From: Oscillospiraceae bacterium
GTDB taxonomy: Bacteria; Bacillota; Clostridia; Oscillospirales; Oscillospiraceae
Direction: 5' to 3'
Length of the DNA: 24,000 nucleotides
Assembly: GCA_016293865.1 (NCBI GenBank)
Contig: JAEDDG010000024.1
Span: forward strand, 1,048 to 25,047
Numbering within the stretch: the first letter of the stretch is position 1; every line of letters starts with the position of its first letter. Both the position numbers and the translations under genes were made by a program. Below, piece after piece: positions 1 through 14,765 of this stretch. Under the pieces are notes generated by a model that saw only the letters and a list, made by a program, of their open reading frames with translations, searched no databases and was not told where the DNA came from.

Positions 1-60
1 CTGGGATTTTTTTAAGCGGTGAACGGCCGTCCAATCTCAAAGAAAACGGAGGAAAACAAG

Positions 61-1476
61 ATGAGAAAGATTAACATTGCAGACATTACGCTCAGCGAAT
101 CCGCTGCCGGCAAGGATCTGACTCTCAGCTTCAAGGAAAAGCTGGAGATTGCCAAGCATCTTGATAAAATGCGGGTGGACGTGCTGGAACTGCCGCAGCT
201 GGAGAATTTGAAGACAGATGCGCTTCTGGTGCGGACCATTGCCACCACTGTGCAGAACTGCGCCGTATCCATTCAGGTGGGTATGACTGAAGCAGGCGCT
301 GACAACGCCTGGGCCGCCGTGATGAAGGCGCGCCGGCCGCGGCTGCGTGTGGCCCTGCCGGTGAGCACGGTGCAGATGGAATATCTGTGCCACAAAAAGC
401 CCGCGGCCATGCTGGAACTGATTTCCGTTATGGTGAAAAAATGCGTCTCCCTGTGCGCGGATGTGGATTTTACCGCGGAGGACGCAACACGCGCCGAGCC
501 GGAATTCCTGAAAGCGGCGATTGAAGCGGCGGTGAAGGCCGGCGCGACAACAGTGACTGTCAGTGACACGGCGGGCATTATGATGCCGGAGGAATTTGCA
601 CAGTTCATTTCCGATCTGCGCGCTACAGTTCCTGAGCTGGAAAATGTATCACTGGCGGTCAAGTGCGCCAATGAGCTGAAAATGTCCGTGGCTTGCGCCA
701 TGACTGCCGTCAAAGCCGGCGCCTGCGAGATCAAGGCATGCGCTTCCGGGGATACGCTGCCGACGCTCTCGGCTCTGAGCCGGATTTTCCGCCTGCGGGG
801 CGATTCTGTGGGCGTCTGCTGCAATCTGAATTCCATGGAGATCCAGCGCCTGACCAAGCAGATTGAGTGGATTACCCGGGCGAAAAAGTCGGCCACCACG
901 CCGTTTGACACCGGCATCAGCGCCGGCAGCGGCGCGGAGTTTTCGCTCAGCAGCAATGACAGCCTGGACGAGGTGGCCAAGGCTGTGGCGCAGCTGGGCT
1001 ATGACCTGACCGAGGATGATATTGCCAAGGTTTATGAGTCTTTTTCCCACATTGCGTCCAAGAAAGCGGTTTCCTCAAAGGAGCTTGAGGCAATTGTGGC
1101 CAGCGTTGCGCTGCAGGTTCCGCCCACGTACCGGCTGAAGAGCTTTGTCATCAACAGCGGCAACCTGATTTCCGCCACAGCCAATATTTCCCTTGACAAG
1201 GGCGACCGGATGATGCAGGGCGTCAGCGTCGGCGACGGTCCTATTGACGCGGCGTTCCTTGCCATTGAAAAAATTATCGGAACCCATTATGACCTGGACG
1301 ATTTCCAGATCCAGGCCGTTACCGAGGGGCGCGAGGCCGTGGGCTCCGCTGTTGTCAAGCTGCGGTCGTCAACCGGAAAGCTTTATTCCGGCCGCGGAAT
1401 TTCCACGGATATCATCGGCGCGTCCATCCGCGCGTACATCAACGCCCTGAACAAGATCGTTTATGAGGAGAACTGA
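61..1476 (+). CDS. LeuA/HMGL-like TIM-barrel protein with a LeuA-type C-terminal regulatory domain; catalytic motifs degenerate (probable pseudoenzyme or regulatory subunit)
   Basis: ORF 19..1476. GGAGGA at 45-50 favours ATG 61 (MRKINIADITL...). The N-terminus is collinear with 2-isopropylmalate synthase, but the expected TLRDGEQ reads TLSESAA and the HxH metal-site region reads AVKCANELK. The C-terminal GDGPIDAAFLAIEKI...GRGISTDIIGASIRAYINALNKI resembles the LeuA dimerisation/allosteric domain. Confidence 0.75.
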   Translation: MRKINIADITLSESAAGKDLTLSFKEKLEIAKHLDKMRVDVLELPQLENLKTDALLVRTIATTVQNCAVSIQVGMTEAGADNAWAAVMKARRPRLRVALPVSTVQMEYLCHKKPAAMLELISVMVKKCVSLCADVDFTAEDATRAEPEFLKAAIEAAVKAGATTVTVSDTAGIMMPEEFAQFISDLRATVPELENVSLAVKCANELKMSVACAMTAVKAGACEIKACASGDTLPTLSALSRIFRLRGDSVGVCCNLNSMEIQRLTKQIEWITRAKKSATTPFDTGISAGSGAEFSLSSNDSLDEVAKAVAQLGYDLTEDDIAKVYESFSHIASKKAVSSKELEAIVASVALQVPPTYRLKSFVINSGNLISATANISLDKGDRMMQGVSVGDGPIDAAFLAIEKIIGTHYDLDDFQIQAVTEGREAVGSAVVKLRSSTGKLYSGRGISTDIIGASIRAYINALNKIVYEEN

Positions 1477-1478
1477 CC

Positions 1479-3995
1479 ATGAAACTTTCATTTTCCATTA
1501 AAGGCTGGAACGGATACAGCTGGGATGAGTTCTGCGCCCTGGCAAAGGATATGGATATTCAGGGCATTGAGCTTTACAATATTCACAATACTGCGTTTAC
1601 AGAGAAGGGCGGCCCCTTTGACGAGCATACGGCGGCGGCCACTCTGCGGGAAATGCATGCGCACAATCTGCAGATCCCGTGCATCGATTCTGTCTGCGAC
1701 ATCGCCGACGCTGCGCAGTATGAACACAACTGCACGGAAATTGACGCCTGTATCAAAACGGCGGCGAGCTTTAAAGTTCCCTATGTCCGCGTACACGCCA
1801 CCGGCGGCGACGATGTGACGGAAACCGTGATGAACTGCCTGCGCAGGGCTGTTGCAGCCGCGGAAGCGGCGGGTGTCACTGTGCTGATTGAAACGGTGGG
1901 GCTCTTTGCCGACACCGGCCGGCTGAGAAATGTCCTGAATGATTTTGCCTGCGACAATCTCGGCGCGCTGTGGGATATGCAGCATCCCTACCGCATCTGC
2001 GGCGAAAAGCCGGACACGACAATCCAGAATCTGGGTGCCTATGTCCGCCATGTGCATGTGAAGGACTCTGAAGTTGTGGACGGCCAGGTGGAATACCGCC
2101 TGATGGGCGAGGGCACGCTGCCTATGCAGGATATGATGAACGCCCTGCGCAGCGTGAACTACAACGGCTTCATTTCCCTGGAATGGGATCCCGCCTGGAT
2201 GCCTGAAATCGACGATATTGAGGTTATCCTGCCGCATTTCGTGAATTACATGAACCGGTTCAGCGATCCCTCCCGGTCGCGCTCCGTTCTGTATGACAAC
2301 CATACGCATACAGGCAAATATGTCTGGAAAAAGGAACTGATCATCGAGAAGACATTCTCTCAGGTACTGGACAGAATGGTGGAGGAATTCCCGGATCAGT
2401 ACGCCTTCAAATATACGACGCTGGATTACACCCGGACCTATGCCGAGTTCAGGGACGATGTGGACGAGTTTGCCCGCACGCTGATCGCGCTGGGCGTCAA
2501 GCCCGGCGACAAGGTGTCCATCTGGGCGACCAACATTCCCCAGTGGTATATCACCTTCTGGGCGACAACGAAGATCGGCGCGATCCTGGTGACTGTCAAT
2601 ACGGCGTACAAGGTGCATGAGGCCGAATATCTGTTCCGTCAGTCCGACACCCATACAATCGTGATGATTGACGGCTACAGGGATTCCAACTACTCTGAAA
2701 TCATCGCGGAGCTGTGCCCGGAGCTGGAGAATACCGTGCCCGGCCAGCCGTTGCATGCAAAGCGCCTGCCGTTCCTGCGCAACGTGATCACCGTCGGGTT
2801 CAGACAGAAGGGCTGCCTGACCTGGGAGGAATCCCTGCTGCTGGCAAACCGCGTGCCCCAGGAAGAGGTGGATCGCAGGGCGGCTGCGGTGGACATTCAC
2901 GACGTGTGCAACATGCAGTATACGTCGGGTACCACGGGCTTCCCCAAGGGTGTTATGCTGACCCATTACAACGTCGTCAACAACGGCAAGGCCATCGGCG
3001 ACTGCATGGATCTGTCCACGGCAGACCGGATGATGATCCAGGTGCCCATGTTCCACTGCTTCGGCATGGTGCTGGCCATGACGGCATCCATGACGCACGG
3101 GGCGACGCTGCATCCGATTCCGTATTTCTCACCGAAATCTTCGCTGGCCTGCATCAACAACGAGCATGTGACGGCCTTCCACGGCGTGCCGACCATGTTT
3201 ATTGCCATGCTCGAGCATGAAGATTTTGAAAAGACTGATTTTTCCTACATGCGTACGGGTATTATGGCCGGTTCCCCCTGTCCCATCAAGGTGATGGAGG
3301 ACGTTGTGGAAAAGATGCACATGCCGGAAATCTGCATTACGTACGGGCAGACGGAGGCATCGCCCGCCACGACCATGAGCAAGACCACAGACTCCATCGA
3401 AACCCGTGTCAATACCGTGGGCAGCCCCATCTTCGGCGTCGAGTGCAAAATTATCAATCCGGAGACAGGCGAGGAAGTGCCGGACAACGTGGACGGCGAG
3501 TTCTGCGCCCGGGGCTACAACATCATGAAGGGATATTACAAGATGCCCATCGCCACGGCGGAAGCCATTGACAAGGACGGCTGGCTCCACTCCGGAGATC
3601 TGCTGCGCCGCCTGCCGGACGGCACGTTCAAGGTTACCGGCCGCCTGAAGGATATGATTATCCGCGGCGGCGAGAACATCTACCCCAAGGAGATCGAGGA
3701 CTTCCTCTACACCCATCCCAAGGTTTCGGACGTTCAGGTCATCGGCGTGCCGGATGAGCAGTACGGCGAGGAAATCATGGCCTGCGTGATTGTGAAGGAA
3801 GGGGAAACGCTGACCGAAAGCGAGCTGCGGGAATATTGCCGCACGCGCATTGCCAAGCATAAGGTCCCGCGCTACTTCGATTTTGTGGATTCCTTCCCCA
3901 TGAATGCGGCCGGAAAGATCCTCAAATACAAAATGCGCGAACAGGCGGTGGACAAGCTGGGCCTGAAGAAGGCGGCGTCGGTTGTGACGGCCTGA
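1479..3995 (+). CDS. Fusion protein: N-terminal xylose-isomerase-like (sugar phosphate isomerase/epimerase, AP-endonuclease-2 type) TIM barrel plus C-terminal AMP-forming acyl-CoA ligase (FadD/ACSF2-like)
   Basis: One 838-aa ORF. Its ATG lies 2 nt after the stop of the upstream gene. Residues about 1-270 carry TIM-barrel metal-ligand-like positions (LIETVG, WDMQHP, HVHVKD, SLEWD). Residues about 300-838 carry adenylate-forming motifs YTSGTTGFPKGVMLTH, YGQTE, GWLHSGD and GRLKDMIIRGGENIYPKEIE. Confidence 0.85.
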   Translation: MKLSFSIKGWNGYSWDEFCALAKDMDIQGIELYNIHNTAFTEKGGPFDEHTAAATLREMHAHNLQIPCIDSVCDIADAAQYEHNCTEIDACIKTAASFKVPYVRVHATGGDDVTETVMNCLRRAVAAAEAAGVTVLIETVGLFADTGRLRNVLNDFACDNLGALWDMQHPYRICGEKPDTTIQNLGAYVRHVHVKDSEVVDGQVEYRLMGEGTLPMQDMMNALRSVNYNGFISLEWDPAWMPEIDDIEVILPHFVNYMNRFSDPSRSRSVLYDNHTHTGKYVWKKELIIEKTFSQVLDRMVEEFPDQYAFKYTTLDYTRTYAEFRDDVDEFARTLIALGVKPGDKVSIWATNIPQWYITFWATTKIGAILVTVNTAYKVHEAEYLFRQSDTHTIVMIDGYRDSNYSEIIAELCPELENTVPGQPLHAKRLPFLRNVITVGFRQKGCLTWEESLLLANRVPQEEVDRRAAAVDIHDVCNMQYTSGTTGFPKGVMLTHYNVVNNGKAIGDCMDLSTADRMMIQVPMFHCFGMVLAMTASMTHGATLHPIPYFSPKSSLACINNEHVTAFHGVPTMFIAMLEHEDFEKTDFSYMRTGIMAGSPCPIKVMEDVVEKMHMPEICITYGQTEASPATTMSKTTDSIETRVNTVGSPIFGVECKIINPETGEEVPDNVDGEFCARGYNIMKGYYKMPIATAEAIDKDGWLHSGDLLRRLPDGTFKVTGRLKDMIIRGGENIYPKEIEDFLYTHPKVSDVQVIGVPDEQYGEEIMACVIVKEGETLTESELREYCRTRIAKHKVPRYFDFVDSFPMNAAGKILKYKMREQAVDKLGLKKAASVVTA

Positions 3996-4096: not shown

Positions 4097-4119
4097 GACA
4101 TCAATTGAATCATTGTTAA

Positions 4120-4404
4120 AGGCTGTGACGAAGACGGAAGAGCGATTTCACATCCAGAGAGCCGGGGACGGTGTGAGCCCGGCGGTGCAGATCCTCATAT
4201 TCCCATCCCTTCCGAGCTGTTGGCCCCAAAGTCCGTTCCGGATGAGTAGACGCCTTCCGTGATTGCTGCGTGAATGCATAGGGCTTGACTGAGCCTGAGA
4301 GCGGTGCCGGATAACCGGCGCAATTTGAGTGGTACCGCGGGTTTATCTTGTTTGTAAACTCGTCTCAAGGATTTCCGTATCTTTGAGACGAGTTTTTTGT
4401 TTTT
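4120..4404 (+). promoter_or_regulatory. T-box riboswitch leader 1 (tRNA-sensing transcription attenuator)
   Basis: K-turn GGC-UGU-GA (4121-4128) opposite GA-GCU (4214-4218). AGAGA bulge at 4156-4160. Distal hairpin gccggg/cccggc with loop GACGGUGUGAG (4161-4183). GAGUAG and CCGUGA (F-box-like) at about 4242-4262. T-box sequence AAUUUGAGUGGUACCGCGG at 4322-4340. UUGAG (4325-4329) can pair with CUCAA (4364-4368) in the 5' arm of the terminator, giving an antiterminator alternative. Confidence 0.85.
4357..4404 (+). terminator. Intrinsic terminator of T-box leader 1
   Basis: actcgtctcaa (4358-4368) pairs with ttgagacgagt (4383-4393), followed by TTTTTGTTTTT. It sits immediately before RBS AAGGAGG (4405-4411). 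Confidence 0.85.
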
Positions 4405-4417
4405 AAGGAGGTAAAAG

Positions 4418-6685
4418 ATGATGAGCAGCTACGTTGACAACAGCATCCTTGAGGTGGCGCACCGCATTCGTGAAATGCGCGAGATCGCGGGCTTTTCCGT
4501 GGAAGAGATGGCCGCCCAGACCAATGTGACGGCTGATATGTACCGGACGCTGGAGGCAGGCGGGACGGACCTTCCGTTCACATTTATCCACAAGTGCGCG
4601 CTGGCCTTCGGCATTGAGATTACCGACCTGATTGAAGGCAAAAGCGCCAAGCTTACCAGCTATACAGTGACCCGCAAAGGTGAGGGACGTGTGACAGCCC
4701 AGGAGGACGGGATTGAAATCCTTGACCTTGCGCCGCAGTTCCGCAAAAAAATTGCAGAGCCGTACTGGGTCCGCTATGAGTATTCTGAAGAGCTGCAGAC
4801 AAAGCCCATTCATCTGACCACACACTCCGGCCAGGAGTTTGACTATATCATCAAGGGCCGCCTGAAGGTTCAGGTCGGCAATCACATCGAAGTTCTCAAT
4901 GAGGGCGATTCGATTTACTACAACAGCTCCACGCCGCACGGCATGATTGCCGTCAACGGTGAGCCCTGCGTATTCTGCGCGGTTGTTCTGCCGGGCGAGG
5001 ATGCGGCGGAGAGCGAGCACAAAAACAGCATCATCCATCCCCGGACGGCGGAGCCCATGATCTGCGACAAGTTTGTGCGCTGCACAGAGGATGAGGAAGG
5101 CCATCTGCAGAAGATCGAGTTTACGAATGAGGATCAGTTCAACTTCGGCTTCGACGTGGTGGATGCGCTGGCGGATAAGTATCCCGATAAGCTTGCCATG
5201 CTGCACATTGCAGAGGATATGACCGAGCGCCGCTTCAGCTTTGCGGACATGAAGCGCGCCAGCGCCCAGACGGCCAACTATTTCACTTCACTGGGCATCA
5301 AAAAGGGCGACCGGGTCATGCTGGTGCTCAAGCGGCACTATCAGTTCTGGTTCTCCATGCTGGCGCTGCATAAGATGGGCGCCATCCCGATCCCGGCCAC
5401 AAACCAGCTTCTGGAGCACGATTTTGAGTACCGTTTCGATGCGGCCGGCATCTCGGCAATCGTCTGCACGGCTGACGGAGACGCTGCGCACCAGGCGGAG
5501 CTGGCCATGGAAAAATGCCCGCAGGTGACTGTCCGCGTGCTCGTAGGCGGGAAGCGGGAAGGCTGGCACGATTTTGACAGCGAGTACAAGCTTTTCTCCG
5601 GCTCTTATCCGCGTACGGAAGAGACGCCCTGCGGCGACGACATCATGTTCATGCTCTTTACTTCCGGCACCACAGGGTACCCGAAAATTGCGGAGCACAG
5701 CTACAAGTATCCGCTCGGCCACTATGTGACCGCCAAGTACTGGCACTGTGTGGAGCGGGGCGGCCTGCACCTGACCATTTCCGATACCGGCTGGGGCAAG
5801 GCGCTGTGGGGCAAGCTTTACGGCCAGTGGCTGGCAGAAGGCGCCGTATTCGTCTATGACTTTGACCGGTTCGATGCCCATAAGATTCTGCCCATGTTTG
5901 CAAAATACAACATTACAACCTTCTGTGCGCCGCCCACCATGCTGCGCATGATGGTCAAGGAGGATCTGTCACAGTACGATCTGAGCTCCGTCACCCATAT
6001 GACGACGGCAGGCGAGGCGCTGAATCCCGAGGTCTTCCGCCAGTTCGAGGCGGCCACCGGCCTGCAGATCATGGAAGGTTTCGGCCAGACGGAGACGACG
6101 CTCCTGATCGGCAACCTGATCGGCGATACACCCAAGCTGGGATCCATGGGCAAGCCCTCGCCCCAGTATGACGTGGTGATTGTGGACGCACAGGGCAAGG
6201 AAGTCCCGGTCGGTGAAAACGGCGAAATCTGCGTGCGTACAGACAAGGGCGTGCCCTGCGGCCTGTTCAAGGGCTATTACAACGCGCCGGATAAAACGGC
6301 CGAGGTCTGGCACGACGGCCTGTACCACACCGGCGACGTGGCCTGGAAGGATGAGGACGGCTATCTGTGGTACGTCAGCCGCATCGACGACGTGATCAAA
6401 TCCTCCGGCTACCGCATCGGGCCGTTTGAGATTGAGAGCGTGATCATGGAGCTTCCGTATGTTCTGGAGTGCGGCGTTTCTGCGGCTCCGGATCCGGTGC
6501 GCGGCCAGGTGGTCAAGGCGTCCATCGTTCTGACTAAGGGAACCGAGGGGACCGAGGAGCTGAAAAAAGAGATCCAGGATTATGTGAAAAAGCATACCGC
6601 ACCGTACAAATATCCGCGTATTGTGGTCTTCCGTGACAGTCTGCCCAAGTCCATCAGCGGCAAGATCCAGCGCAACAAGCTGTAA
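4418..6685 (+). CDS. XRE-family HTH + cupin + medium-chain acyl-CoA synthetase (MACS/ACSM-like, AMP-forming) fusion, paralog 1
   Basis: 755-aa ORF with AAGGAGG 6 nt upstream. HTH at about aa 10-70 (FSVEEMAAQTNVTADMYRTLEAG). Cupin at about aa 130-190 (HSGQEFDYIIKG...STPHGMIAV). Ligase motifs FTSGTTGYPK, GFGQTET, YHTGDVA, RIDDVIKSSGYRIGPFEIES, SGKIQRNKL. Confidence 0.9.
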   Translation: MMSSYVDNSILEVAHRIREMREIAGFSVEEMAAQTNVTADMYRTLEAGGTDLPFTFIHKCALAFGIEITDLIEGKSAKLTSYTVTRKGEGRVTAQEDGIEILDLAPQFRKKIAEPYWVRYEYSEELQTKPIHLTTHSGQEFDYIIKGRLKVQVGNHIEVLNEGDSIYYNSSTPHGMIAVNGEPCVFCAVVLPGEDAAESEHKNSIIHPRTAEPMICDKFVRCTEDEEGHLQKIEFTNEDQFNFGFDVVDALADKYPDKLAMLHIAEDMTERRFSFADMKRASAQTANYFTSLGIKKGDRVMLVLKRHYQFWFSMLALHKMGAIPIPATNQLLEHDFEYRFDAAGISAIVCTADGDAAHQAELAMEKCPQVTVRVLVGGKREGWHDFDSEYKLFSGSYPRTEETPCGDDIMFMLFTSGTTGYPKIAEHSYKYPLGHYVTAKYWHCVERGGLHLTISDTGWGKALWGKLYGQWLAEGAVFVYDFDRFDAHKILPMFAKYNITTFCAPPTMLRMMVKEDLSQYDLSSVTHMTTAGEALNPEVFRQFEAATGLQIMEGFGQTETTLLIGNLIGDTPKLGSMGKPSPQYDVVIVDAQGKEVPVGENGEICVRTDKGVPCGLFKGYYNAPDKTAEVWHDGLYHTGDVAWKDEDGYLWYVSRIDDVIKSSGYRIGPFEIESVIMELPYVLECGVSAAPDPVRGQVVKASIVLTKGTEGTEELKKEIQDYVKKHTAPYKYPRIVVFRDSLPKSISGKIQRNKL

Positions 6686-6758: not shown

Positions 6759-6787
6759 TTGACAACCTTTTTTCGGTGTGGTAATCT
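6759..6787 (+). promoter_or_regulatory. Sigma-A-like promoter of T-box leader 2
   Basis: TTGACA (6759-6764), 17-nt spacer, TAATCT (6782-6787), with TG 1 nt upstream (TGgTAATCT, extended -10-like). Confidence 0.55.
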
Positions 6788-6803
6788 TTACTCAATTCAG
6801 AAA

Positions 6804-7089
6804 AGCTTTGACGGAGAGTGCCCTGGCAGGCCGTGTTTCAGAGAATTGGCGTCTGGTGCGAGCCAATAATACGCAGCCAGCGGTTTGTAGCTCCCGAGCT
6901 GGAAGGAAGAAAGCGCGTGCGTGAGTAGAACCTTCCCGTGACTGCTGCGTAAAGGCATAGGGCTTGACAGAGTCTGAGAGTGGCGCTGGTTTCCGGCGCA
7001 ATTTGAGTGGTACCGCGGGTCTTTATATGAACGTATAAAACTCGTCTCAAAGATTACAACATCTTTGGGGCGGGTTTTTGTTTTACCGC
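6804..7089 (+). promoter_or_regulatory. T-box riboswitch leader 2 (tRNA-sensing transcription attenuator)
   Basis: K-turn AGC-UUU-GA (6804-6811) opposite GA-GCU (6896-6900). AGAGA at 6840-6844. Distal hairpin attggc/gccaat with loop GUCUGGUGCGA. GAGUAG and CCGUGA elements at about 6922-6941. A 28-nt block ccggcgcaatttgagtggtaccgcgggt (6993-7020) is identical to 4315-4342. Terminator ctcgtctcaaagat / atctttggggcggg (7041-7074, several G-U pairs) followed by TTTTTGTTTT. Confidence 0.85.
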
Positions 7090-7110
7090 CCCGGAAAACG
7101 GAGGAAAATT

Positions 7111-9378
7111 ATGGTTGCTGTGAACACAAAAATTCAGGAAATTGCCGGCCGTATCCGCGAGCTGCGGGAGGTTATGGGTCATACGGTGGGCGATATGGCA
7201 GCTCTGACCGGGATCTCCGAGGAAGAGTATGCGGCCTGTGAAAGCGGCCAGCGTGATCTGAGCTTTGCATTTCTGTACCTTTGCGCCCAGGCGTTCCGCG
7301 TGGACGTGACGGACATCATTCAGGGCCAGAGCCCCAAACTGAAAAGCTATTCCATCACCCGCGCGGGCGAGGGACAGCTGATCAACCGCGCCCATGATAT
7401 GGAATATTTCAACCTGGCCGGCTCTTTCCGCAAGAGAATTGCGGATCCTCTGTATGTCAACATCACCTATGTGGAAGGCGCCGAGCGCCGTCCCATTGAA
7501 GTGACCACCCATGAGGGCCAGGAGTGCGACATTGTGCTCAAGGGCACAATGAAGCTGCAGGTCGGCGAGCATGTGGAAATCCTGCACGAGGGCGACTGCG
7601 CCTATTATGACAGCTCCACGCCGCACGGCATGATTGCAGTCGGCGGCAAGGACTGCGTTTTTTACGCAATTGTTCTGACGCCGAACAAGGACGAGGAGAG
7701 CAAAAGCGCCGACGTGGAAACAAGATCCACGGAGAAGGACAACACCATTCGCGTCTGGAACGAGTTTGTGGAGCCTGTTGAGGATGAGAAGGGCTGCTTG
7801 AAAAGCATTTCCTTCAAGAACACGGACCGCTTCAATTTTGCCTTTGACGTGGTCGACAGGCTGGGACAGGAAAAACCGGACAAGACGGCCATCCTGCATG
7901 TGAGCAGGGATCATACGGCACGACGCATTACCTTCGGCGAGATGAAGCGCGCCAGCGCCCAGACGGCCAACTATTTCAAGTCCCTGGGCATCAAAAAAGG
8001 CGACCGGGTCATGCTGATTCTCAAGCGTCATTATCAGTACTGGTTCTGCGTCAACGCCCTGCACAAAATCGGCGCCATTGCGATTCCGGCCATGTGCCAG
8101 CTGCTGGACCATGACATTGAATACCGGTTCAATGCCGCCGGCGTGTCCACCATTATCTGCACGGCGGACGGCGATACCGCGCATCAGGTGGAACTGGCGT
8201 GTGCCCGCTGCCCGCAGGTTGTCAATAAGATCCTTGTGGGCGGAAAGCGGGAAGGCTGGCGTGATTATGACGAGGAATACCAGCTGTTTTCCGGCCGGTT
8301 CCCCCGCACGGCGGATACGCCCTGCGGCGACGACCTGATGCTTATGTACTTCACTTCCGGCACGACCGGCTACCCGAAAATGGCGGCGCACAGCTACAAG
8401 TATCCGCTGGGCCATTTTGTAACGGCGAAATACTGGCAGTGCGTGAATCCCGAAGGACTGCATCTGACCATTTCCGATACCGGCTGGGCCAAGGCCGGCT
8501 GGGGCAAGATTTACGGCCAGTGGCTGTGCGAAGGCGGTCTGTTTGTCTATGACTTCGACCGGTTCGACGCCCATGATATCCTGCCCATGTTTGCCCAGTA
8601 TCACATTACAACCTTCTGCGCGCCGCCCACCATGCTGCGCCTGATGGTCAAAGAGGATATCAGCAAGTACGATCTGAGCTCGATCGAGCACATGACGACG
8701 GCCGGCGAGGCGCTGAATCCGGAGGTCTTCCGCCAGTTCAAGGCGGCAACGGGCCTGAACATTATGGAGGGCTTCGGCCAGACGGAGACGACGGTGATCG
8801 TCGGCAATCTGGAGGGCACGAAGGTCCGTATCGGGTCCATGGGCAAGGCGAATCCCCAGTATGATGTGGACATCGTCGATCCCCAGGGGAACAGCGTGCC
8901 CGTGGGCGAAAACGGCGAGATCGTGATCCGCACAGACAAGGGCGCGCCCTGCGGCCTGCTGAAGGAATACTACAAGGCGCCGGACAAAACGCTGGAGACC
9001 TGGCATGACGGCATGTATCACACAGGCGACGTGGCCTGGCGCGATGAGGACGGTTATTTCTGGTATGTGGGCCGGATTGACGATGTGATCAAATCTTCCG
9101 GCTACCGTATCGGCCCGTTCGAAATCGAGAGCGTGATCATGGAGCTGCCGTACGTTCTGGAGTGCGGCGTGTCCGCGGCGCCGGATCCGGTCCGCGGCCA
9201 GGTGGTCAAGGCGTCCATCGTCCTTACAAAGGGAACCGAGGGAACCGAAGAGCTGAAAAAAGAGATTCAGGCTTATGTCAAGGAGCATACGGCTCCGTAT
9301 AAATATCCGCGCATTGTTGTGTTCCTGGACTCCCTGCCCAAGACCACCAGCGGCAAGATCCAGCGCAACAAGCTGTAA
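7111..9378 (+). CDS. XRE-family HTH + cupin + medium-chain acyl-CoA synthetase fusion, paralog 2
   Basis: The ORF track starts at 7078, but that start lies inside the T-box terminator U-tract. ATG 7111 is preceded by GGAGGA and gives 755 aa (MVAVNTKIQEIAGRIRELRE...), the same length and architecture as paralog 1. The last 101 aa differ from paralog 1 at 5 positions. Confidence 0.9.
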   Translation: MVAVNTKIQEIAGRIRELREVMGHTVGDMAALTGISEEEYAACESGQRDLSFAFLYLCAQAFRVDVTDIIQGQSPKLKSYSITRAGEGQLINRAHDMEYFNLAGSFRKRIADPLYVNITYVEGAERRPIEVTTHEGQECDIVLKGTMKLQVGEHVEILHEGDCAYYDSSTPHGMIAVGGKDCVFYAIVLTPNKDEESKSADVETRSTEKDNTIRVWNEFVEPVEDEKGCLKSISFKNTDRFNFAFDVVDRLGQEKPDKTAILHVSRDHTARRITFGEMKRASAQTANYFKSLGIKKGDRVMLILKRHYQYWFCVNALHKIGAIAIPAMCQLLDHDIEYRFNAAGVSTIICTADGDTAHQVELACARCPQVVNKILVGGKREGWRDYDEEYQLFSGRFPRTADTPCGDDLMLMYFTSGTTGYPKMAAHSYKYPLGHFVTAKYWQCVNPEGLHLTISDTGWAKAGWGKIYGQWLCEGGLFVYDFDRFDAHDILPMFAQYHITTFCAPPTMLRLMVKEDISKYDLSSIEHMTTAGEALNPEVFRQFKAATGLNIMEGFGQTETTVIVGNLEGTKVRIGSMGKANPQYDVDIVDPQGNSVPVGENGEIVIRTDKGAPCGLLKEYYKAPDKTLETWHDGMYHTGDVAWRDEDGYFWYVGRIDDVIKSSGYRIGPFEIESVIMELPYVLECGVSAAPDPVRGQVVKASIVLTKGTEGTEELKKEIQAYVKEHTAPYKYPRIVVFLDSLPKTTSGKIQRNKL

Positions 9379-9387
9379 GGAGAACTT

Positions 9388-10071
9388 ATGCTTACAAAAC
9401 GCATTTCCCTGTTTGCCGGCCATTACGGCAGCGGAAAGACGAATATCGCCGTGAACTGCGCGCTGTGCGCCAGGGAAGCGGGGCAGAACGTGACCATTGC
9501 CGACCTGGATATTGTCAACCCGTATTTCCGGACAAAGGACAGCGAGGCGCTTTTGAAGCGTCATGGGATCGGCCTTGTCTGCTCCGAATATGCCAATACA
9601 AATCTGGATATCCCGGCACTGCCCAAGGAACTGTATGCCATATTGGCACGCAGGGATTCAGCGGTTATAATGGATATCGGCGGCGATGACCGCGGCGCCG
9701 TGGCGCTGGGCCGCTATACGCCGATGATTCTGGAAGAAAACGATTACGACATGTTTTTTGTGGCCAATTTTTACCGGCCGCTGACCCGTACGCCGGAAGA
9801 AATGATCCAGATCATGCGTGAGATTGAAACGGCTTCCGGCCTGCCGTTTACGGCAATCATCAACAACTCGAACCTTGCCGGCGACACACAGGCAGACACA
9901 GTGACAGACACTGTGGGGAAGGCGCGGGAACTGTCCCGGATAACGGGGCTGCCCATACGCGCCACCTGTGTGGAGCAGAGGCTTTTCGAAAGCCTGAAGG
10001 ATCAGATACCGGATCTTGTTCCGCTGCATCTTCAGGAAAAATATTTTGACATTGTAAATGGAGGGATCTAA
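9388..10071 (+). CDS. P-loop NTPase (SIMIBI/MinD-ParA-CooC-like), function unknown
   Basis: Walker A AGHYGSGKTN near the N-terminus and a Walker-B-like VIMDIGGDD. RBS AAGGAGA overlaps the stop of the upstream ligase gene. Its stop lies 1 nt before the ferredoxin-subunit start. Confidence 0.75.
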   Translation: MLTKRISLFAGHYGSGKTNIAVNCALCAREAGQNVTIADLDIVNPYFRTKDSEALLKRHGIGLVCSEYANTNLDIPALPKELYAILARRDSAVIMDIGGDDRGAVALGRYTPMILEENDYDMFFVANFYRPLTRTPEEMIQIMREIETASGLPFTAIINNSNLAGDTQADTVTDTVGKARELSRITGLPIRATCVEQRLFESLKDQIPDLVPLHLQEKYFDIVNGGI

Positions 10072-10072
10072 A

Positions 10073-10279
10073 ATGGCGAAGCTGACATTTAAAACCGACC
10101 TGTGCAAGGGATGCGGACTGTGCGTCAACGCATGTCCGAAGGGCGTGCTTGAAATTGCGCGCGACAAAATCAACCTCAAGGGGTATTCTCCCGTGGTTGC
10201 CAGGGATATGGATAAATGCATCGGTTGTGCATTCTGCGCAACCATGTGTCCCGACTGCATTATTACAGTAGAAAAGTGA
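10073..10279 (+). CDS. 2-oxoacid:ferredoxin oxidoreductase delta subunit (2x[4Fe-4S] ferredoxin)
   Basis: Two CxxCxxCxxxCP motifs (CKGCGLCVNACP, CIGCAFCATMCP). ATG 10073 (MAKLTFK...) is preceded by GGAGGG. The ORF-track start 10058 overlaps the previous gene. Confidence 0.85.
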   Translation: MAKLTFKTDLCKGCGLCVNACPKGVLEIARDKINLKGYSPVVARDMDKCIGCAFCATMCPDCIITVEK

Positions 10280-10289
10280 GGTGCCGATT

Positions 10290-11351
10290 ATGGCAGAAAA
10301 AGTATTGATGAAGGGCAATGAAGCCATTGCCGAGGCAGCCATCCGCGCCGGCTGCCGTCACTATTTCGGATATCCCATCACGCCGCAGACAGAAATCGCG
10401 GCATATATGGCCAAGAAAATGCCGAAAATCGGCGGAACATTTCTCCAGGCGGAAAGTGAAATTGCCGCCATTAATATGGTCTACGGCGTATCCTCTGCCG
10501 GCTTCCGGGTCATGACCTCGTCATCCAGCCCCGGTGTCAGCCTGAAGAGCGAGGGCCTGTCCTATCTGGCGGGCTGCGACCTGCCGGCGCTTGTGGTCAA
10601 TGTCCAGCGCGGCGGCCCCGGCCTCGGCGGCATTCAGCCCTCCCAGTCCGATTATTTTATGGCCACCAAGGGCGGCGGACACGGCGATTTCCGCATGATC
10701 GTTCTGGCGCCTGCTTCTGTTCAGGAAATGGCCGGCCTGACCTTCAAGGCTTTTGAACTGGCCGATCAGTACAGAATGACCGCCATGCTGCTGGCTGACG
10801 GAACTCTGGGTCAGATGATGGAGGCCATCACGTTCCCGGAGACTGAGGTCAGGACATTTGACAAGCCCTGGGCCGTCACCGGCACGCAGATGAAGCGCCC
10901 CCACAACATCATCAATTCTCTGGCGCTCGTACCGGATGTGCTGGAAAAGATGAATTTTGACCGGTATAAGAAATACGCGGAAATCGAGGAAAAGGAGCCC
11001 ATGTACGAATCGTACATGATGGATGACGCGGAAATCTGTGTCGTCGCCTTCGGTATTGCCTCCCGCGTGTCCAAGAATGCAATTATGGCCGCAAGGGCTG
11101 AGGGCATCAAGGTGGGCATGATCCGGCCCATCACGCTCTGGCCGTTCCCCACAAAGGCGCTGGCAGAAGCGGCGCAGAAGTGCAGGGCGTTTGTCTCTGT
11201 TGAACTCAACATGGGCCAGATGATTGAAGATGTCCGGCTGGCTACCGGCTGCGCGCGGCCTGTTTCCCTGTGCAACAGAGCCGGCGGTATGATCCCCACG
11301 CCGGATCATGTCCTTGCATCCATTCGGGAAGCCAACAAGGGAGGTAACTGA
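10290..11351 (+). CDS. 2-oxoacid:ferredoxin oxidoreductase alpha subunit (KorA/VorB-type)
   Basis: MAEKVLMKGNEAIAEAAIRAGCRHYFGYPITPQTEI is the typical OFOR alpha N-terminus. GAGGTG sits 6 nt upstream of ATG 10290. Confidence 0.9.
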   Translation: MAEKVLMKGNEAIAEAAIRAGCRHYFGYPITPQTEIAAYMAKKMPKIGGTFLQAESEIAAINMVYGVSSAGFRVMTSSSSPGVSLKSEGLSYLAGCDLPALVVNVQRGGPGLGGIQPSQSDYFMATKGGGHGDFRMIVLAPASVQEMAGLTFKAFELADQYRMTAMLLADGTLGQMMEAITFPETEVRTFDKPWAVTGTQMKRPHNIINSLALVPDVLEKMNFDRYKKYAEIEEKEPMYESYMMDDAEICVVAFGIASRVSKNAIMAARAEGIKVGMIRPITLWPFPTKALAEAAQKCRAFVSVELNMGQMIEDVRLATGCARPVSLCNRAGGMIPTPDHVLASIREANKGGN

Positions 11352-11353
11352 TT

Positions 11354-12112
11354 ATGGTCGTTTTTGAGAAACCTCATGCCCTCACCGATGCACCGCTGCA
11401 TTACTGCCCCGGCTGCACGCACGGCATTGTTCACCGCCTTGTGGCGGAAGCCATCGACGCCCTCGGAATTGAGGGGAAGACCATCGGCGTGGCGCCGGTC
11501 GGCTGCTCCGTCATGGCCTATAATTATTTTTCATGCGATATGATTGAAGCGGCGCACGGCCGCGCACCGGCTGTGGCAACCGGCGTAAAGCGGGCGCTGC
11601 CGGACAACATTGTCTTTACATATCAGGGCGACGGCGATCTGGCGTCCATCGGCACGGCGGAGACCGTTCACGCTGCAGCGAGAAACGAGAACATTACGAT
11701 TATCTTCATCAACAACGCCATTTACGGCATGACCGGCGGCCAGATGGCGCCCACGTCGCTGCCCGGCCAGGTGACGCAGACTTCGCCGTACGGCCGCGAT
11801 CCGCAGCTGTGCGGTTTCCCGGTTAAAATCTGCGAAATGCTTTCTCAGCTGGAAGGTCCGGAGTATATTGAGCGCGTGGCGGTCAACAACGTCAAGAACA
11901 TCAAAAAAGCCGGCAAAGCCATTCTGAAAGCTTTTAAGAACCAGACGGAGAACAAGGGCTTCTCGCTGATTGAAGTTGTCTCCACCTGTCCCACCAACTG
12001 GGGTATGACGCCGCAGGACGCGATGAAGTGGGTGGATGAAAAAATGATTCCCTATTACCCGCTGGGCGTTTACAAAGACAGAAGCGCGGAAAAAGCAGAG
12101 GAGGGGAAATAA
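11354..12112 (+). CDS. 2-oxoacid:ferredoxin oxidoreductase beta subunit (TPP-binding)
   Basis: CPGCTHG cysteine motif and TPP motif YQGDGDLASIG...NNAIYGMTGGQ. Tightly packed against the alpha and gamma genes. Confidence 0.9.
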   Translation: MVVFEKPHALTDAPLHYCPGCTHGIVHRLVAEAIDALGIEGKTIGVAPVGCSVMAYNYFSCDMIEAAHGRAPAVATGVKRALPDNIVFTYQGDGDLASIGTAETVHAAARNENITIIFINNAIYGMTGGQMAPTSLPGQVTQTSPYGRDPQLCGFPVKICEMLSQLEGPEYIERVAVNNVKNIKKAGKAILKAFKNQTENKGFSLIEVVSTCPTNWGMTPQDAMKWVDEKMIPYYPLGVYKDRSAEKAEEGK

Positions 12113-12645
12113 TGGCCACTTCACAGATTCTGATTGCGGGTTTCGGCGGACAGGGCGTCCTTTTCGCCGGGAAGTTTTTGGCCTACAAGGCCCTGACTGA
12201 GAATAAGCAGCTGAGCTGGCTGCCGTCCTACGGCCCGGAAATGCGCGGCGGCACGGCCAACTGCAGCGTGATTATCAGCGACGATCCGGTTGGTTCTCCC
12301 ATCATTACCACGCCGGACTGCCTGATTGCCATGAACCGGCCGTCTCTTGACAAATATGTGGACGCAGTGGCGCCCGGCGGCATGATCCTTGTGGATTCGT
12401 CCCTGATCAGCGTCGAGGTCGAACGCACGGATGTCCGCACCTTCTATATTCCGGCAACCAAAATGGCAAATGACGCGGGCTTCGCGACGCTTGCGAACAT
12501 GGTTCTTGTGGGCAAACTGATCAAGGAATCCGGCGTTGTTTCTTTTGAAAATAACAAAGAGACTTTTGAAAAGTTCATTCCGGCAAAGAAAGCAAATCTG
12601 ATTGAGATCAACTGCCAGGCCCTGCAGACCGGGTATGATTATTAA
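12112..12645 (+). CDS. 2-oxoacid:ferredoxin oxidoreductase gamma subunit
   Basis: N-terminal [16 protein letters not shown] and [19 protein letters not shown] are typical of OFOR gamma subunits. TAATG overlap with the beta subunit gene. Confidence 0.9.
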
Positions 12646-12663
12646 AGGAAAGGATGTATTACC

Positions 12664-13737
12664 ATGCTTGACATTAAGATCACCAAAACCACACAGCCCA
12701 AGCAAAAGCCCGCGCCGGGTCAGAAACTCGGCTTCGGCCATATTTTCACCGACCATATGTTCATCATGAACTATACGGAAGGAAAAGGCTGGCATGATCC
12801 GCGGATCGTTCCGTTCCAGAATCTGAGCCTGTCTCCCGCGGCGATGGTTTTTCACTACGGTCAGGAAATGTTCGAAGGCCTGAAGGCCTATAAGAATTCC
12901 GACGGCGAAGTTTTCCTTTTCCGCCCGGATATGAACGCCAAGCGCACCAATTCTTCCAATGAGCGTCTGTGTATCCCGCAGCTGCCGGAAGAGGATTTTG
13001 TCCAGGCTGTCAGAACGGTTGTGGATGTGGACCGCGACTGGGTCCCGACGGATCCCGGCACGTCCCTGTATATCCGTCCGTTCATCATCGCAACGGATGA
13101 GTTCCTGGGTGTTGCGCCGTCCAAGACGTATCTGTTCATGGTCATTCTGTCACCCAGCGGCGCTTATTATGAAAGCGGACTGGAGCCTGTGGGCATCTGG
13201 ATTGAGGATGAGTATGTCCGTGCGGTCCGCGGCGGCATGGGCTTTGCCAAAACCGGCGGCAACTATGCGGCCAGCCTGATCGGCCAGGTGAAGGCGCACA
13301 ACGACGGTTATTCCCAGGTTCTGTGGCTGGACGGTGTGGAGCGCAAGTACGTTGAGGAAGTCGGCTCCATGAATATTTTCTTCAAAATTGCCGGCAAAGT
13401 GGTTACGCCCATGCTCAACGGCAGCATCCTGCCGGGCATTACCCGCAACTCTGTCATTACCCTGTGCAAAGAGTGGGGCTATGAGGTTGAGGAACGGAAG
13501 GTTTCTGCTGAAGAGCTGATTCAGGCGCATGCAGACGGCACGCTGGAAGAGGTTTTCGGCACCGGTACTGCAGCCGTCATTTCTCCTGTCGGCAAGCTGC
13601 GCTATAAGGACGATGTGATGACGATCCAGGACGGCAGGACCGGCGAACTGAGCCACCGTCTCTATGATACCATTACCGGCATTCAGCTGGGCAAGCTGCC
13701 GGACACGCACGGCTGGCGTGTAAAAGTCGGCGAATAA
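12664..13737 (+). CDS. ilvE: Branched-chain amino acid aminotransferase (class IV, long form)
   Basis: 357 aa. Motifs FGHIFTDHMF, YGQEMFEGLKAY, RAVRGGMGFAKTGGNYAASL and ILPGITR match long-form IlvE (YbgE/YwaA type). RBS AAGGAAAGGA upstream. Confidence 0.9.
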   Translation: MLDIKITKTTQPKQKPAPGQKLGFGHIFTDHMFIMNYTEGKGWHDPRIVPFQNLSLSPAAMVFHYGQEMFEGLKAYKNSDGEVFLFRPDMNAKRTNSSNERLCIPQLPEEDFVQAVRTVVDVDRDWVPTDPGTSLYIRPFIIATDEFLGVAPSKTYLFMVILSPSGAYYESGLEPVGIWIEDEYVRAVRGGMGFAKTGGNYAASLIGQVKAHNDGYSQVLWLDGVERKYVEEVGSMNIFFKIAGKVVTPMLNGSILPGITRNSVITLCKEWGYEVEERKVSAEELIQAHADGTLEEVFGTGTAAVISPVGKLRYKDDVMTIQDGRTGELSHRLYDTITGIQLGKLPDTHGWRVKVGE

Positions 13738-13829
13738 TCGGAAATAAACCATGCCCGGGCGGCGCTGCGCGCTGTCCGGGCACTGCGTGTGTTGTGGCGG
13801 CATATACTGTAAAAAAGAAATAATGAGAG

Positions 13830-14765
13830 GTGCACCCTTTGGTTTATAATAATGTGCTGGAGGCGGTCGGACAGACGCCCGTCATTCGGCTGATGCGCAT
13901 GAGCAATCCCAATCATGCCCAGGTTCTTGTCAAATATGAAGGGCTGAACGTGGGCGGTTCGATCAAAACGCGGACTGCGCTGAATATGATCAACGCGGCC
14001 GAGCGTGCCGGGATTATCCGTCCGGATACGATTATTGTGGAGCCGACCAGCGGAAACCAGGGCATCGGTCTGGCACTGGTCGGTGCTGTCCGCGGCTATA
14101 AAACTGTGATTATCATGCCCGATTCGGTCAGTGTGGAGCGGCGCAAACTGATTGAGCATTACGGCGCGCAGCTTGTGCTGATCCGGGACGAGGGCAACAT
14201 CGGCGACTGCATTGAAAAGTGTATTCAGACGGCAAATGACATGGCGAAAGCGGACAGCCGCGTTTATATTCCACAGCAGTTTTCCAATCCGAACAATCCA
14301 CTGGTGCATAAGCATTTCACGGCGCTGGAGATTCTCCAGCAGGTTGCAGGGCCCATTCACGGCTTCTGCTCCGGAATCGGTACGGGCGGCACAATTTCCG
14401 GCATCGGCGAGACGCTGAAAAGCGTTTATCCGGATATGACCATCTGGGCTGTTGAGCCGGAGAACGCGGCGATTCTGGCCGGAGGAACGGTCGGCTCCCA
14501 TCTTCAGATGGGAATCGGAGACGGCCTGATTCCGGAAAATCTGAACACGAAGATTTACGACGATATCTACATTGTCAGTGATGATGAGGCCATCGGAACA
14601 GCCAAGGATCTGGCGCGGTACGAGGGTCTGATGTGCGGCATTTCCAGCGGCACAAATGTGGCCGCGGCGCTGAAGCTTGCGGAGAAGCTGGGGAAGGGAA
14701 AAACAGTTGTGACCATTCTGCCGGACACGGCGGAGCGCTATTTTTCCACGCCGCTGTTTGACTGA
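13830..14765 (+). CDS. cysK: Cysteine synthase A / O-acetylserine sulfhydrylase (PLP-dependent)
   Basis: GQTPVIRL, GGSIKTR (PLP lysine), TSGNQGIGLA and GIGTGGTISG motifs. The start is uncertain: GTG 13830 overlaps the GAGAGG RBS, so TTG 13839 (spacing about 7 nt) is at least as likely. Confidence 0.85.
   Translation: MHPLVYNNVLEAVGQTPVIRLMRMSNPNHAQVLVKYEGLNVGGSIKTRTALNMINAAERAGIIRPDTIIVEPTSGNQGIGLALVGAVRGYKTVIIMPDSVSVERRKLIEHYGAQLVLIRDEGNIGDCIEKCIQTANDMAKADSRVYIPQQFSNPNNPLVHKHFTALEILQQVAGPIHGFCSGIGTGGTISGIGETLKSVYPDMTIWAVEPENAAILAGGTVGSHLQMGIGDGLIPENLNTKIYDDIYIVSDDEAIGTAKDLARYEGLMCGISSGTNVAAALKLAEKLGKGKTVVTILPDTAERYFSTPLFD

Follow-up and report, generated by a model that had tools for sequence, protein, structure and literature searches.

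The subject of this analysis is Leader 2, a region on the forward strand of a 24,000-nucleotide stretch of contig JAEDDG010000024.1 from an Oscillospiraceae bacterium (hereafter the window, meaning this whole stretch), which lies upstream of lig2, a gene for a putative AMP-binding acyl-CoA ligase. Leader 2 is very probably a transcription-attenuating T-box riboswitch that is specific for tRNA-Val, and most likely it turns on genes for making valine from isobutyrate under valine shortage in a gut or rumen Clostridium. The specificity class is already known among T-boxes, and the assignment to valine is correct and unsurprising; as a specifier call it is routine, since GUA is the commonest valine codon of T-boxes. 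The three-leader regulon to which Leader 2 may belong, and the substrates that such a regulon would imply, appear to be of more interest than the codon itself.

Leader 2 and its specifier codon

Leader 2 is matched by the whole of the T-box model RF00230 (model positions 1-219), with 87.2 bits and an E-value of 1.4e-19 locally and of 5.6e-18 window-wide. In this alignment the specifier columns "uuc" and the following "a" fall on GUA and G6890 with the top posterior probability. This is exactly the place at which the original prediction, made from the sequence alone, had put the specifier, namely at 6887-6889, one nucleotide above the basal helix and followed by a purine. An unfitted MAFFT alignment of 86 Stem I sequences, which puts the codon in three shared columns, and a Stem I covariance model lead to the same triplet, and thus none of the comparative alignments places the specifier elsewhere.

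The structure that frames the codon was analysed on the MAFFT alignment with RNAalifold and explicit pair counting. For the whole structure 93.1% of the cells are paired, compared with 30-52% when the partners are slid by one to three columns. Cells changed on both sides number 349, compared with 107 ± 12 in shuffles, and the observed covariation score was matched by 0 of 500 shuffles. The basal helix, for which GGAG 6813-6816 had been predicted to pair with CUCC 6891-6894, agrees with the sequence and is 100% paired in the 86 leaders, with compensatory changes in three of its four pairs (AU 69/GC 16; AU 83/GC 3; GC 82/AU 4). G12, A13 and G98-A99-G100 (numbering of the first sequence) are invariant in the Stem I alignment. 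For the upper part of Stem I the original prediction was right in the CUGGC/GCCAG helix but not in the 10-nt 3' strand of the loop, CGGUUUGUAG: the loop was drawn three base pairs too large. The alignment shows three more covarying pairs (G6820.U6884, C6821-G6883 and C6822-G6882) that stack under CUGGC/GCCAG, and therefore the specifier loop consists of AGU on its 5' side and UUGUAG on its 3' side. This shrinkage of the loop leaves the position of the codon unchanged. In the distal part of Stem I, the AG bulge AGAGA (6840-6844) and the distal-loop sequence UGGUGCGA (6854-6861) fit the AGAGA and GGUGNRA motifs, and the AGAGA and GGUG columns have zero entropy in the valine-class leaders described below and agree with the Rfam consensus. 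According to published T-box structures, this distal platform contacts the tRNA elbow (PMC7583486).

Downstream of Stem I, the Rfam alignment gives high posterior probabilities for Stem II and, after it, for a predicted F-box-like GCGUAA and a predicted Stem III (~6983-6999). The antiterminator is formed by helix A1 (UUUGAG 7002-7007 with CUCAAA 7046-7051) and helix A2, which starts from GCGGGU 7015-7020, and between them lies the T-box bulge UGGUACC (7008-7014); the conserved T-box sequence AAUUUGAGUGGUACCGCG is present. Its minimum free energy (MFE) fold has -13.0 kcal/mol (z -2.2) and shows the exact 7-nt bulge. The intrinsic terminator is more stable (MFE -22.3 kcal/mol, z -5.8), and 0 of 200 shuffles were equally stable. 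Terminator and antiterminator are mutually exclusive; both contain the nucleotides 7040-7051, the overlap lying on the 3' side of the antiterminator. The T-box anatomy of Leader 2 is thus complete for transcription attenuation. Upstream of it a promoter-like site can be read, with a -35 box TTGACA (6759-6764), a 17-nt spacer ending in TGg and a -10 box TAATCT (6782-6787), and therewith an extended -10 element TGgTAATCT (6779-6787). A consensus scan did not list this promoter-like site because its -10 hexamer matches in only three of six positions; orthologous leaders (e.g. those of loci L036, L016 and L003) have clearer TGnTATAAT-like boxes at equal distance.

Specifier codons and downstream genes in related loci

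A scan of representative genomes gave 79 related loci, all from metagenome-assembled genomes of gut and rumen Clostridia (Oscillospiraceae, Acutalibacteraceae, Christensenellaceae and similar). Nearly all of them carry the T-box motif ~100 nt upstream of a ligase gene, and many have the tandem leader-ligase-leader-ligase layout of the window, in which Leader 1 precedes the paralogue lig1. Since nhmmer with single-leader queries recovered the leaders only in part, the Stem I covariance model, built from the MAFFT alignment, was used instead, and 131 leaders were found in the window and the 79 loci. The codon was taken as the three nucleotides before the last loop nucleotide, and each leader was paired with the next gene by tblastn with the window proteins. 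GUA occurs in 47 leaders, of which 45 precede a lig2 orthologue and two lie at contig edges, and GUC in seven, likewise before lig2 orthologues. AUC is found in 54 leaders before lig1 orthologues, whereas CUC (14 leaders) and CUG (seven leaders) precede a leuA-like gene. There are zero crossovers between codon class and following gene, and all 52 readable genes behind valine-class leaders are lig2 orthologues. Two covariance-model hits are left over, one marginal and not a T-box, the other at the end of a short contig (L037:3005-3114) with GAA and then U at the codon position, which could reflect a different specificity or a shifted loop; the contig ends before the gene behind this leader.

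Within the valine class (n = 54), every leader has G and U as the first two nucleotides of the codon, followed by A in 47 and C in seven leaders, and the nucleotide after the codon is G in 46 and A in eight. This is the column pattern expected of a valine codon whose wobble position is free to vary and which is followed by a purine. Rfam independently aligns GUC+G (L015, L048), GUC+A (L042) and GUA+G (L016) to the same columns. A UGGU bulge, which requires the discriminator A73, is present in every leader that carries the T-box motif, and a tRNA-Val(GAC) gene in one of the loci (L071:14022-14098), belonging to a related lineage and not to the source genome, ends in GCGCCC-A-CCA, i.e., with A73-CCA. 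A tRNA scan that covered the window and 60 loci gave no other relevant tRNA. The codon usage of the leaders agrees with that of T-boxes in TBDB, where valine specifiers are GUA (0.61) and GUC (0.29), isoleucine specifiers AUC (0.99) and leucine specifiers CUC (0.77) (PMC7778990). Of the parallel drawn in the original prediction with the B. subtilis valS leader, said to have GUA as well, this confirms that GUA generally predominates in valine T-boxes.

Observations against the assignment and alternative readings

Several observations speak against a functional, valine-specific T-box. The score of Leader 2 is about six bits below the Rfam gathering score of RF00230 (93 bits), which is an operational cutoff and no structural feature, and a default Rfam scan of the window reported no match, the T-boxes surfacing only with an E-value threshold. 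The specifier loop lacks the S-turn: it reads AGU / UU-codon-R instead of the usual AGUA / GAA-codon-R, and at this site the Rfam alignment requires a 3-nt deletion and has GUU in place of GAA. When Stem I is folded as a single sequence, the MFE structure has the basal helix displaced by two positions and G6890 paired. A tRNA scan of the window found no tRNA gene. Among the NCBIfam models the ligase domain matches MbcS best, with 426 bits far below the cutoff of 850. Finally, U6886 is kept in 52 of the 54 valine-class leaders, so that conservation alone leaves a frame starting one nucleotide earlier open.

An S-turn (loop E) within the specifier loop of Stem I is typical of the T-box family and not universal. 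The reduced loop without the canonical AGUA/GAA S-turn is common to the whole family of ligase-associated leaders, and the missing S-turn is probably the reason why many members score below the Rfam cutoff. Related leaders of this family reach 74.5-115.7 bits with RF00230, and one valine-class orthologue (L015:6712) passes the gathering score with 96.3 bits. Leaders associated with ligases are often found below this threshold, and both leaders of the window are among those that default annotation misses. The shifted MFE fold was rejected because its z is only -0.97, the invariant K-turn GA nucleotides are paired in it, and slid registers are not conserved.

The low score also bears on the idea that Leader 2 is a decayed, non-functional duplicate of Leader 1, with the operon being expressed constitutively or by upstream read-through. 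The 3' halves of both leaders are very alike, which indicates duplication, and the -10 box of Leader 2 is weak. Yet the functional motifs are all intact, including the K-turn GA, AGAGA, GGUG, the 7-nt UGGUACC bulge and the strong terminator overlapping the antiterminator. Moreover, the 54 valine-class leaders keep covarying helices and the invariant GU although their pairwise Stem I identity is overall only 59%, which argues for purifying selection. We therefore consider decay of Leader 2 highly improbable.

The conserved U6886 would be part of the codon if the functional specifier were UGU (6886-6888) in the -1 frame and the leader sensed tRNA-Cys. A cysK gene (TIGR01139, cutoff passed) located 93 nt past the aminotransferase gene in the window fits with that, and alternative frames are noted by TBDB as rare cases (PMC7778990). 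However, two leaders have a C at the position of U6886 (CGUAG in L021, CGUCG in L015). In the UGU frame, codon and helix would be separated by two nucleotides, of which the first is A or C; this matches neither the T-box architecture nor the Rfam alignment. In the sister leaders the -1 frame reads CAU/UAU (isoleucine class) and UCU/CCU, an incoherent set of amino acids, and only in the standard frame do the codons of all classes fit together, as those of the three branched-chain amino acids. Furthermore, bacterial tRNA-Cys carries U73 and would be mismatched to the UGGU bulge, and the conserved operon is related to branched-chain amino acids, with cysK syntenic in 0 of 79 loci. The cysteine reading, which the original prediction had already disfavoured, was thus rejected on the missing synteny of cysK, the A73-type bulge and the incoherent frame of the sister leaders, and there is hardly any probability left for it. 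The +1 frame at the specifier is UAG, a stop codon.

A third reading takes the codons as overlapping, so that GUA (Val) would be accompanied by UUG or CUG (Leu) in the -2 frame and several branched-chain tRNAs would induce the shared oxidoreductase and aminotransferase. The -2 frame is (U/C)UG in 44 of the 54 valine-class leaders, tRNA-Leu has the discriminator A73 as well, and the downstream enzymes would serve all three branched-chain amino acids. A precedent is given by one report of overlapping-frame T-boxes, as it is cited in PMC7778990. Against that, a pyrimidine preference at a single position is weak evidence, the -2 frame adjoins or enters the covarying upper helix, and dedicated leucine (CUC/CUG) and isoleucine (AUC) leaders in the same loci remove the need for dual sensing, so that a dual specificity of Leader 2 seems very unlikely. 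At 6885-6886 the valine-class leaders are biased: 52 of the 54 have U directly before the codon (-1), and 44 have a pyrimidine at -2. The isoleucine-class leaders favour CC or CU at the two positions before the codon. The bias probably has a structural cause.

Genes downstream of and around Leader 2

With GUA as valine specifier, the genes behind Leader 2 are those expected to be controlled by tRNA-Val (Table 1). The first of them, lig2, is followed by the genes for a CbiA-like protein, four subunits of an oxidoreductase and a branched-chain aminotransferase (9388..13737), and this gene order is kept in the related loci. A terminator scan from 7078 to 13737 found nothing terminator-like except for weak matches within genes. 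The CbiA/MinD-like protein, for which no NCBIfam match was obtained, is encoded between the ligase and the delta gene in nearly all loci, and its gene overlaps the delta gene by 14 nt. The cysK gene starts 93 nt after the aminotransferase gene, with a promoter-like site at 13823-13850; since it is absent after the operon in all 79 related loci, it is probably a separate unit.

Table 1. Coordinates of Leader 2, its structural elements and the neighbouring genes in the window
Feature	Position	Strand	Basis
Promoter-like site of Leader 2	6759..6787	+	inferred from sequence
T-box Leader 2, Stem I through antiterminator	6799..7052	+	RF00230 alignment
Stem I	6804..6900	+	RNAalifold and pair counts, 86 sequences
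Stem I closing helix	A6804-U6900, G6805-C6899, C6806-G6898	+	RNAalifold and pair counts
K-turn GA motifs	6810-6811 and 6896-6897	+	invariant in alignment
Basal helix, 5' strand GGAG	6813..6816	+	pairs with CUCC 6891-6894
Specifier loop, 5' side AGU	6817-6819	+	
Upper helix, 5' strand: GCC 6820-6822, then CUGGC 6823-6827	6820..6827	+	columns 22-24 / 96-98 covary
Distal Stem I: AGAGA bulge 6840-6844, AUUGGC 6845-6850 / GCCAAU 6862-6867, loop GUCUGGUGCGA 6851-6861	6840..6867	+	
Upper helix, 3' strand	GCCAG 6876-6880, bulged C6881, GGU 6882-6884	+	sequence and pair counts
Specifier loop, 3' side UUGUAG	6885..6890	+	bounded by G6820.U6884 above and G6816-C6891 below
Specifier codon GUA (Val)	6887..6889	+	Rfam alignment; GUA/GUC in 54 valine-class leaders
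Purine G 3' of codon	6890..6890	+	G 46, A 8 in valine class
Basal helix, 3' strand CUCC	6891..6894	+	pairs with GGAG 6813-6816
Stem II: GGAAGG 6901-6906 / CCUUCC 6931-6936, S-turn-like GAA and AGUAGA	6901..6936	+	Rfam alignment
Antiterminator	7002..7051	+	MFE fold, Rfam alignment
Intrinsic terminator: 18-pair stem 7037-7078 into U tract	7037..7088	+	terminator scan, MFE
LeuA-like protein	19-1476		Pfam/NCBIfam
AP_endonuc_2 (TIM barrel)::AMP-binding ligase fusion	1479-3995		Pfam/NCBIfam
Leader 1 (T-box)	4116-4370		RF00230, 56.7 bits
lig1: HTH_XRE, cupin and AMP-binding ligase	4418-6685		Pfam
lig2: HTH_XRE, cupin and AMP-binding acyl-CoA ligase; first gene under Leader 2	7111..9378	+	Pfam
CbiA-like P-loop protein	9388-10071	+	Pfam
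Two-cluster ferredoxin-like delta subunit	10058-10279	+	Pfam
VorB-like alpha subunit	10281-11351	+	NCBIfam VorB (NF005507), 538 bits, cutoff 399, passed
Beta subunit	11354-12112	+	Pfam
Gamma subunit	12112-12645	+	Pfam
Branched-chain aminotransferase	12664-13737	+	NCBIfam, 504 bits, cutoff 307, passed
cysK	13830-14765		TIGR01139, passed

The ligases belong to a large family with at least 8000 relatives at E < 1e-50. The closest relatives of lig2 are ~71% identical, and the few named ones carry only the label "AMP-binding protein". MbcS of Staphylococcus aureus selectively activates isobutyrate and 2-methylbutyrate (PMC10026030); as lig2 stays below the MbcS equivalog cutoff, isobutyrate can be proposed as its substrate only by inference. 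Within the window lig2 and lig1 are 68% identical. Across the loci, ligase identity is 68% within and 62% between specifier classes, and in a neighbour-joining tree the ligases associated with isoleucine leaders form a clade of 53 tips with one valine-associated intruder. This match of phylogeny and specifier fits a substrate specialisation of the two paralogues. The intruder is a ligase that follows a GUA leader (L010, ~6983); its grouping may be due to recombination between tandem copies or to an artefact of the tree. Four residues cleanly split valine- and isoleucine-associated ligases, R57K, M97I and L114Y in the HTH-cupin module and A460G in the ligase domain. In genomes without lig2 (L057, L064, L067, L072, L075), the oxidoreductase operon begins directly with the AUC leader and lig1. 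Both lig1 and lig2 have an N-terminal module of HTH_XRE and cupin joined to the AMP-binding part, and this module resembles a domain for DNA binding or ligand sensing attached to a metabolic enzyme.

Over their final ~95 residues (6400-6685 and 9093-9378) the lig1 and lig2 proteins are almost identical. Recent gene conversion was rejected as an explanation, because the C-termini are alike in protein and the DNA there is just 87% identical (over the last 330 nt); the likeness rather points to strong purifying selection on the C-terminal domain. An antisense open reading frame of 836 aa (7054-9564, reverse strand) covers all of lig2 and is taken to be a by-product of the GC-rich coding sequence, not a gene.

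Proposed mechanism and function of the operon

The analysis established the anatomy of the RNA, the register of the codon and how well it is conserved, the two alternative folds (terminator or antiterminator) and the families of the downstream proteins, and on this basis the following mechanism can be proposed; tRNA binding by Leader 2 and antitermination dependent on uncharged tRNA would follow the established T-box mechanism (PMC7583486, PMC7778990). GUA would be presented at the 3' end of the small specifier loop, stacked on G6890, and would pair with the anticodon of tRNA-Val, most simply that of the UAC isoacceptor, while the distal AGAGA/GGUG platform would hold the tRNA elbow. If the tRNA-Val is uncharged, its A73-CCA end would pair with UGGU (7008-7011) in the 7-nt bulge, which would stabilise the antiterminator over the stronger terminator and its U tract, so that RNA polymerase continues; with charged tRNA-Val the terminator would form. 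Read-through would then lead to the production of lig2, as a short-branched-chain acyl-CoA ligase, of a 2-ketoisovalerate:ferredoxin oxidoreductase (VOR) and of a branched-chain aminotransferase. Isobutyrate would thereby be activated to isobutyryl-CoA, which would be reductively carboxylated to 2-ketoisovalerate and transaminated to valine. The assumption that the regulated genes serve valine supply rests on family membership as regards the enzymatic functions, and the direction of the pathway as well as isobutyrate as substrate are suggested by the enzyme families together with the starvation logic of the leader.

A possible regulon with three arms

In Leader 1 the triplet in this register is AUC (Ile), and the base after it is C instead of a purine. 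Its orthologues all read AUC (54/54), with C in 29 and A in 25 as the next base, and all precede a lig1 orthologue. Leucine-class T-boxes read CUC or CUG in all 21 cases and precede the leuA-like gene (e.g. L013:13666-13774, L016:13817-13924, L057:1558-1665), whose product scores below all NCBIfam cutoffs for isopropylmalate synthases. In many loci and in the window the leuA-like gene is followed by the gene for the TIM-barrel (AP_endonuc_2)::AMP-ligase fusion. As these two genes start at position 19 of the window, their leader should lie just to the left of it.

We see about an even chance that Leader 2 is one arm of a tRNA-gated salvage regulon with three classes, widespread in gut and rumen Clostridia (Oscillospiraceae, Acutalibacteraceae, Christensenellaceae). 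In such a regulon tRNA-Val (GUA/GUC) would gate lig2, tRNA-Ile (AUC) lig1, and tRNA-Leu (CUC/CUG) the leuA-like gene and the TIM-barrel-fused ligase. The three acid-activating arms would converge on a single, shared 2-oxoacid:ferredoxin oxidoreductase and a single aminotransferase, and the specifiers would assign isobutyrate to lig2, 2-methylbutyrate to lig1 and isovalerate to the third ligase. It has long been known that rumen bacteria need branched short-chain acids, and if true, the regulon would show which genes underlie this requirement and by what logic they are controlled. The operon of Leader 2 probably lets gut and rumen Clostridia make valine from isobutyrate via reductive carboxylation. 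Furthermore, the codon of Leader 2, read alongside those of the sister leaders (AUC and CUC/CUG), would serve as an annotation key, which gives testable substrates for the HTH-cupin ligases, a very large family with hardly any named members. A practical consequence is that default Rfam annotation misses many leaders of this kind.

Comparison with known systems

T-box control of a 2-ketoisovalerate:ferredoxin oxidoreductase or of branched-acid ligases was not found described in the searchable literature, the coverage of which is incomplete, so that an earlier description is possible. Leader 2 resembles the valine-specific T-boxes of Firmicutes, e.g. those upstream of valS, in architecture and presumed mechanism, in GUA in the standard frame (61% in TBDB), in the trailing purine, in the UGGU bulge for A73 and in the competition of terminator and antiterminator. 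It differs from them in that it precedes an operon of ligase, oxidoreductase and aminotransferase genes and not a tRNA synthetase gene, and in its reduced specifier loop without S-turn and its score below the gathering threshold. With the leucine-specific leader of the Bacillus subtilis ilv-leu operon it shares the tRNA-sensed induction of branched-chain amino acid synthesis and a specificity that corresponds to the product of the pathway. However, the route proposed here is reductive (acid to acyl-CoA to 2-oxoacid) and not the acetolactate route, and in one locus three leaders (Val, Ile, Leu) would control one activating enzyme apiece, a different one in each case.

Among the enzymes, MbcS of S. 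aureus is the best NCBIfam match of the ligase, and its substrates are those predicted for lig2 and lig1, whereas both ligases differ from it by the 426 bits reached against the cutoff of 850 and by the additional N-terminal HTH_XRE and cupin domains. MbcS feeds fatty-acid synthesis (PMC10026030), whereas lig1 and lig2 are predicted to act in amino-acid synthesis. The oxidoreductase corresponds to known VOR enzymes in that its alpha subunit passes the VorB model (NF005507) and the organisation in four subunits, delta, alpha, beta and gamma, is the same, whereas the reductive carboxylation of isobutyryl-CoA is suggested here solely by the valine-starvation logic of the leader.

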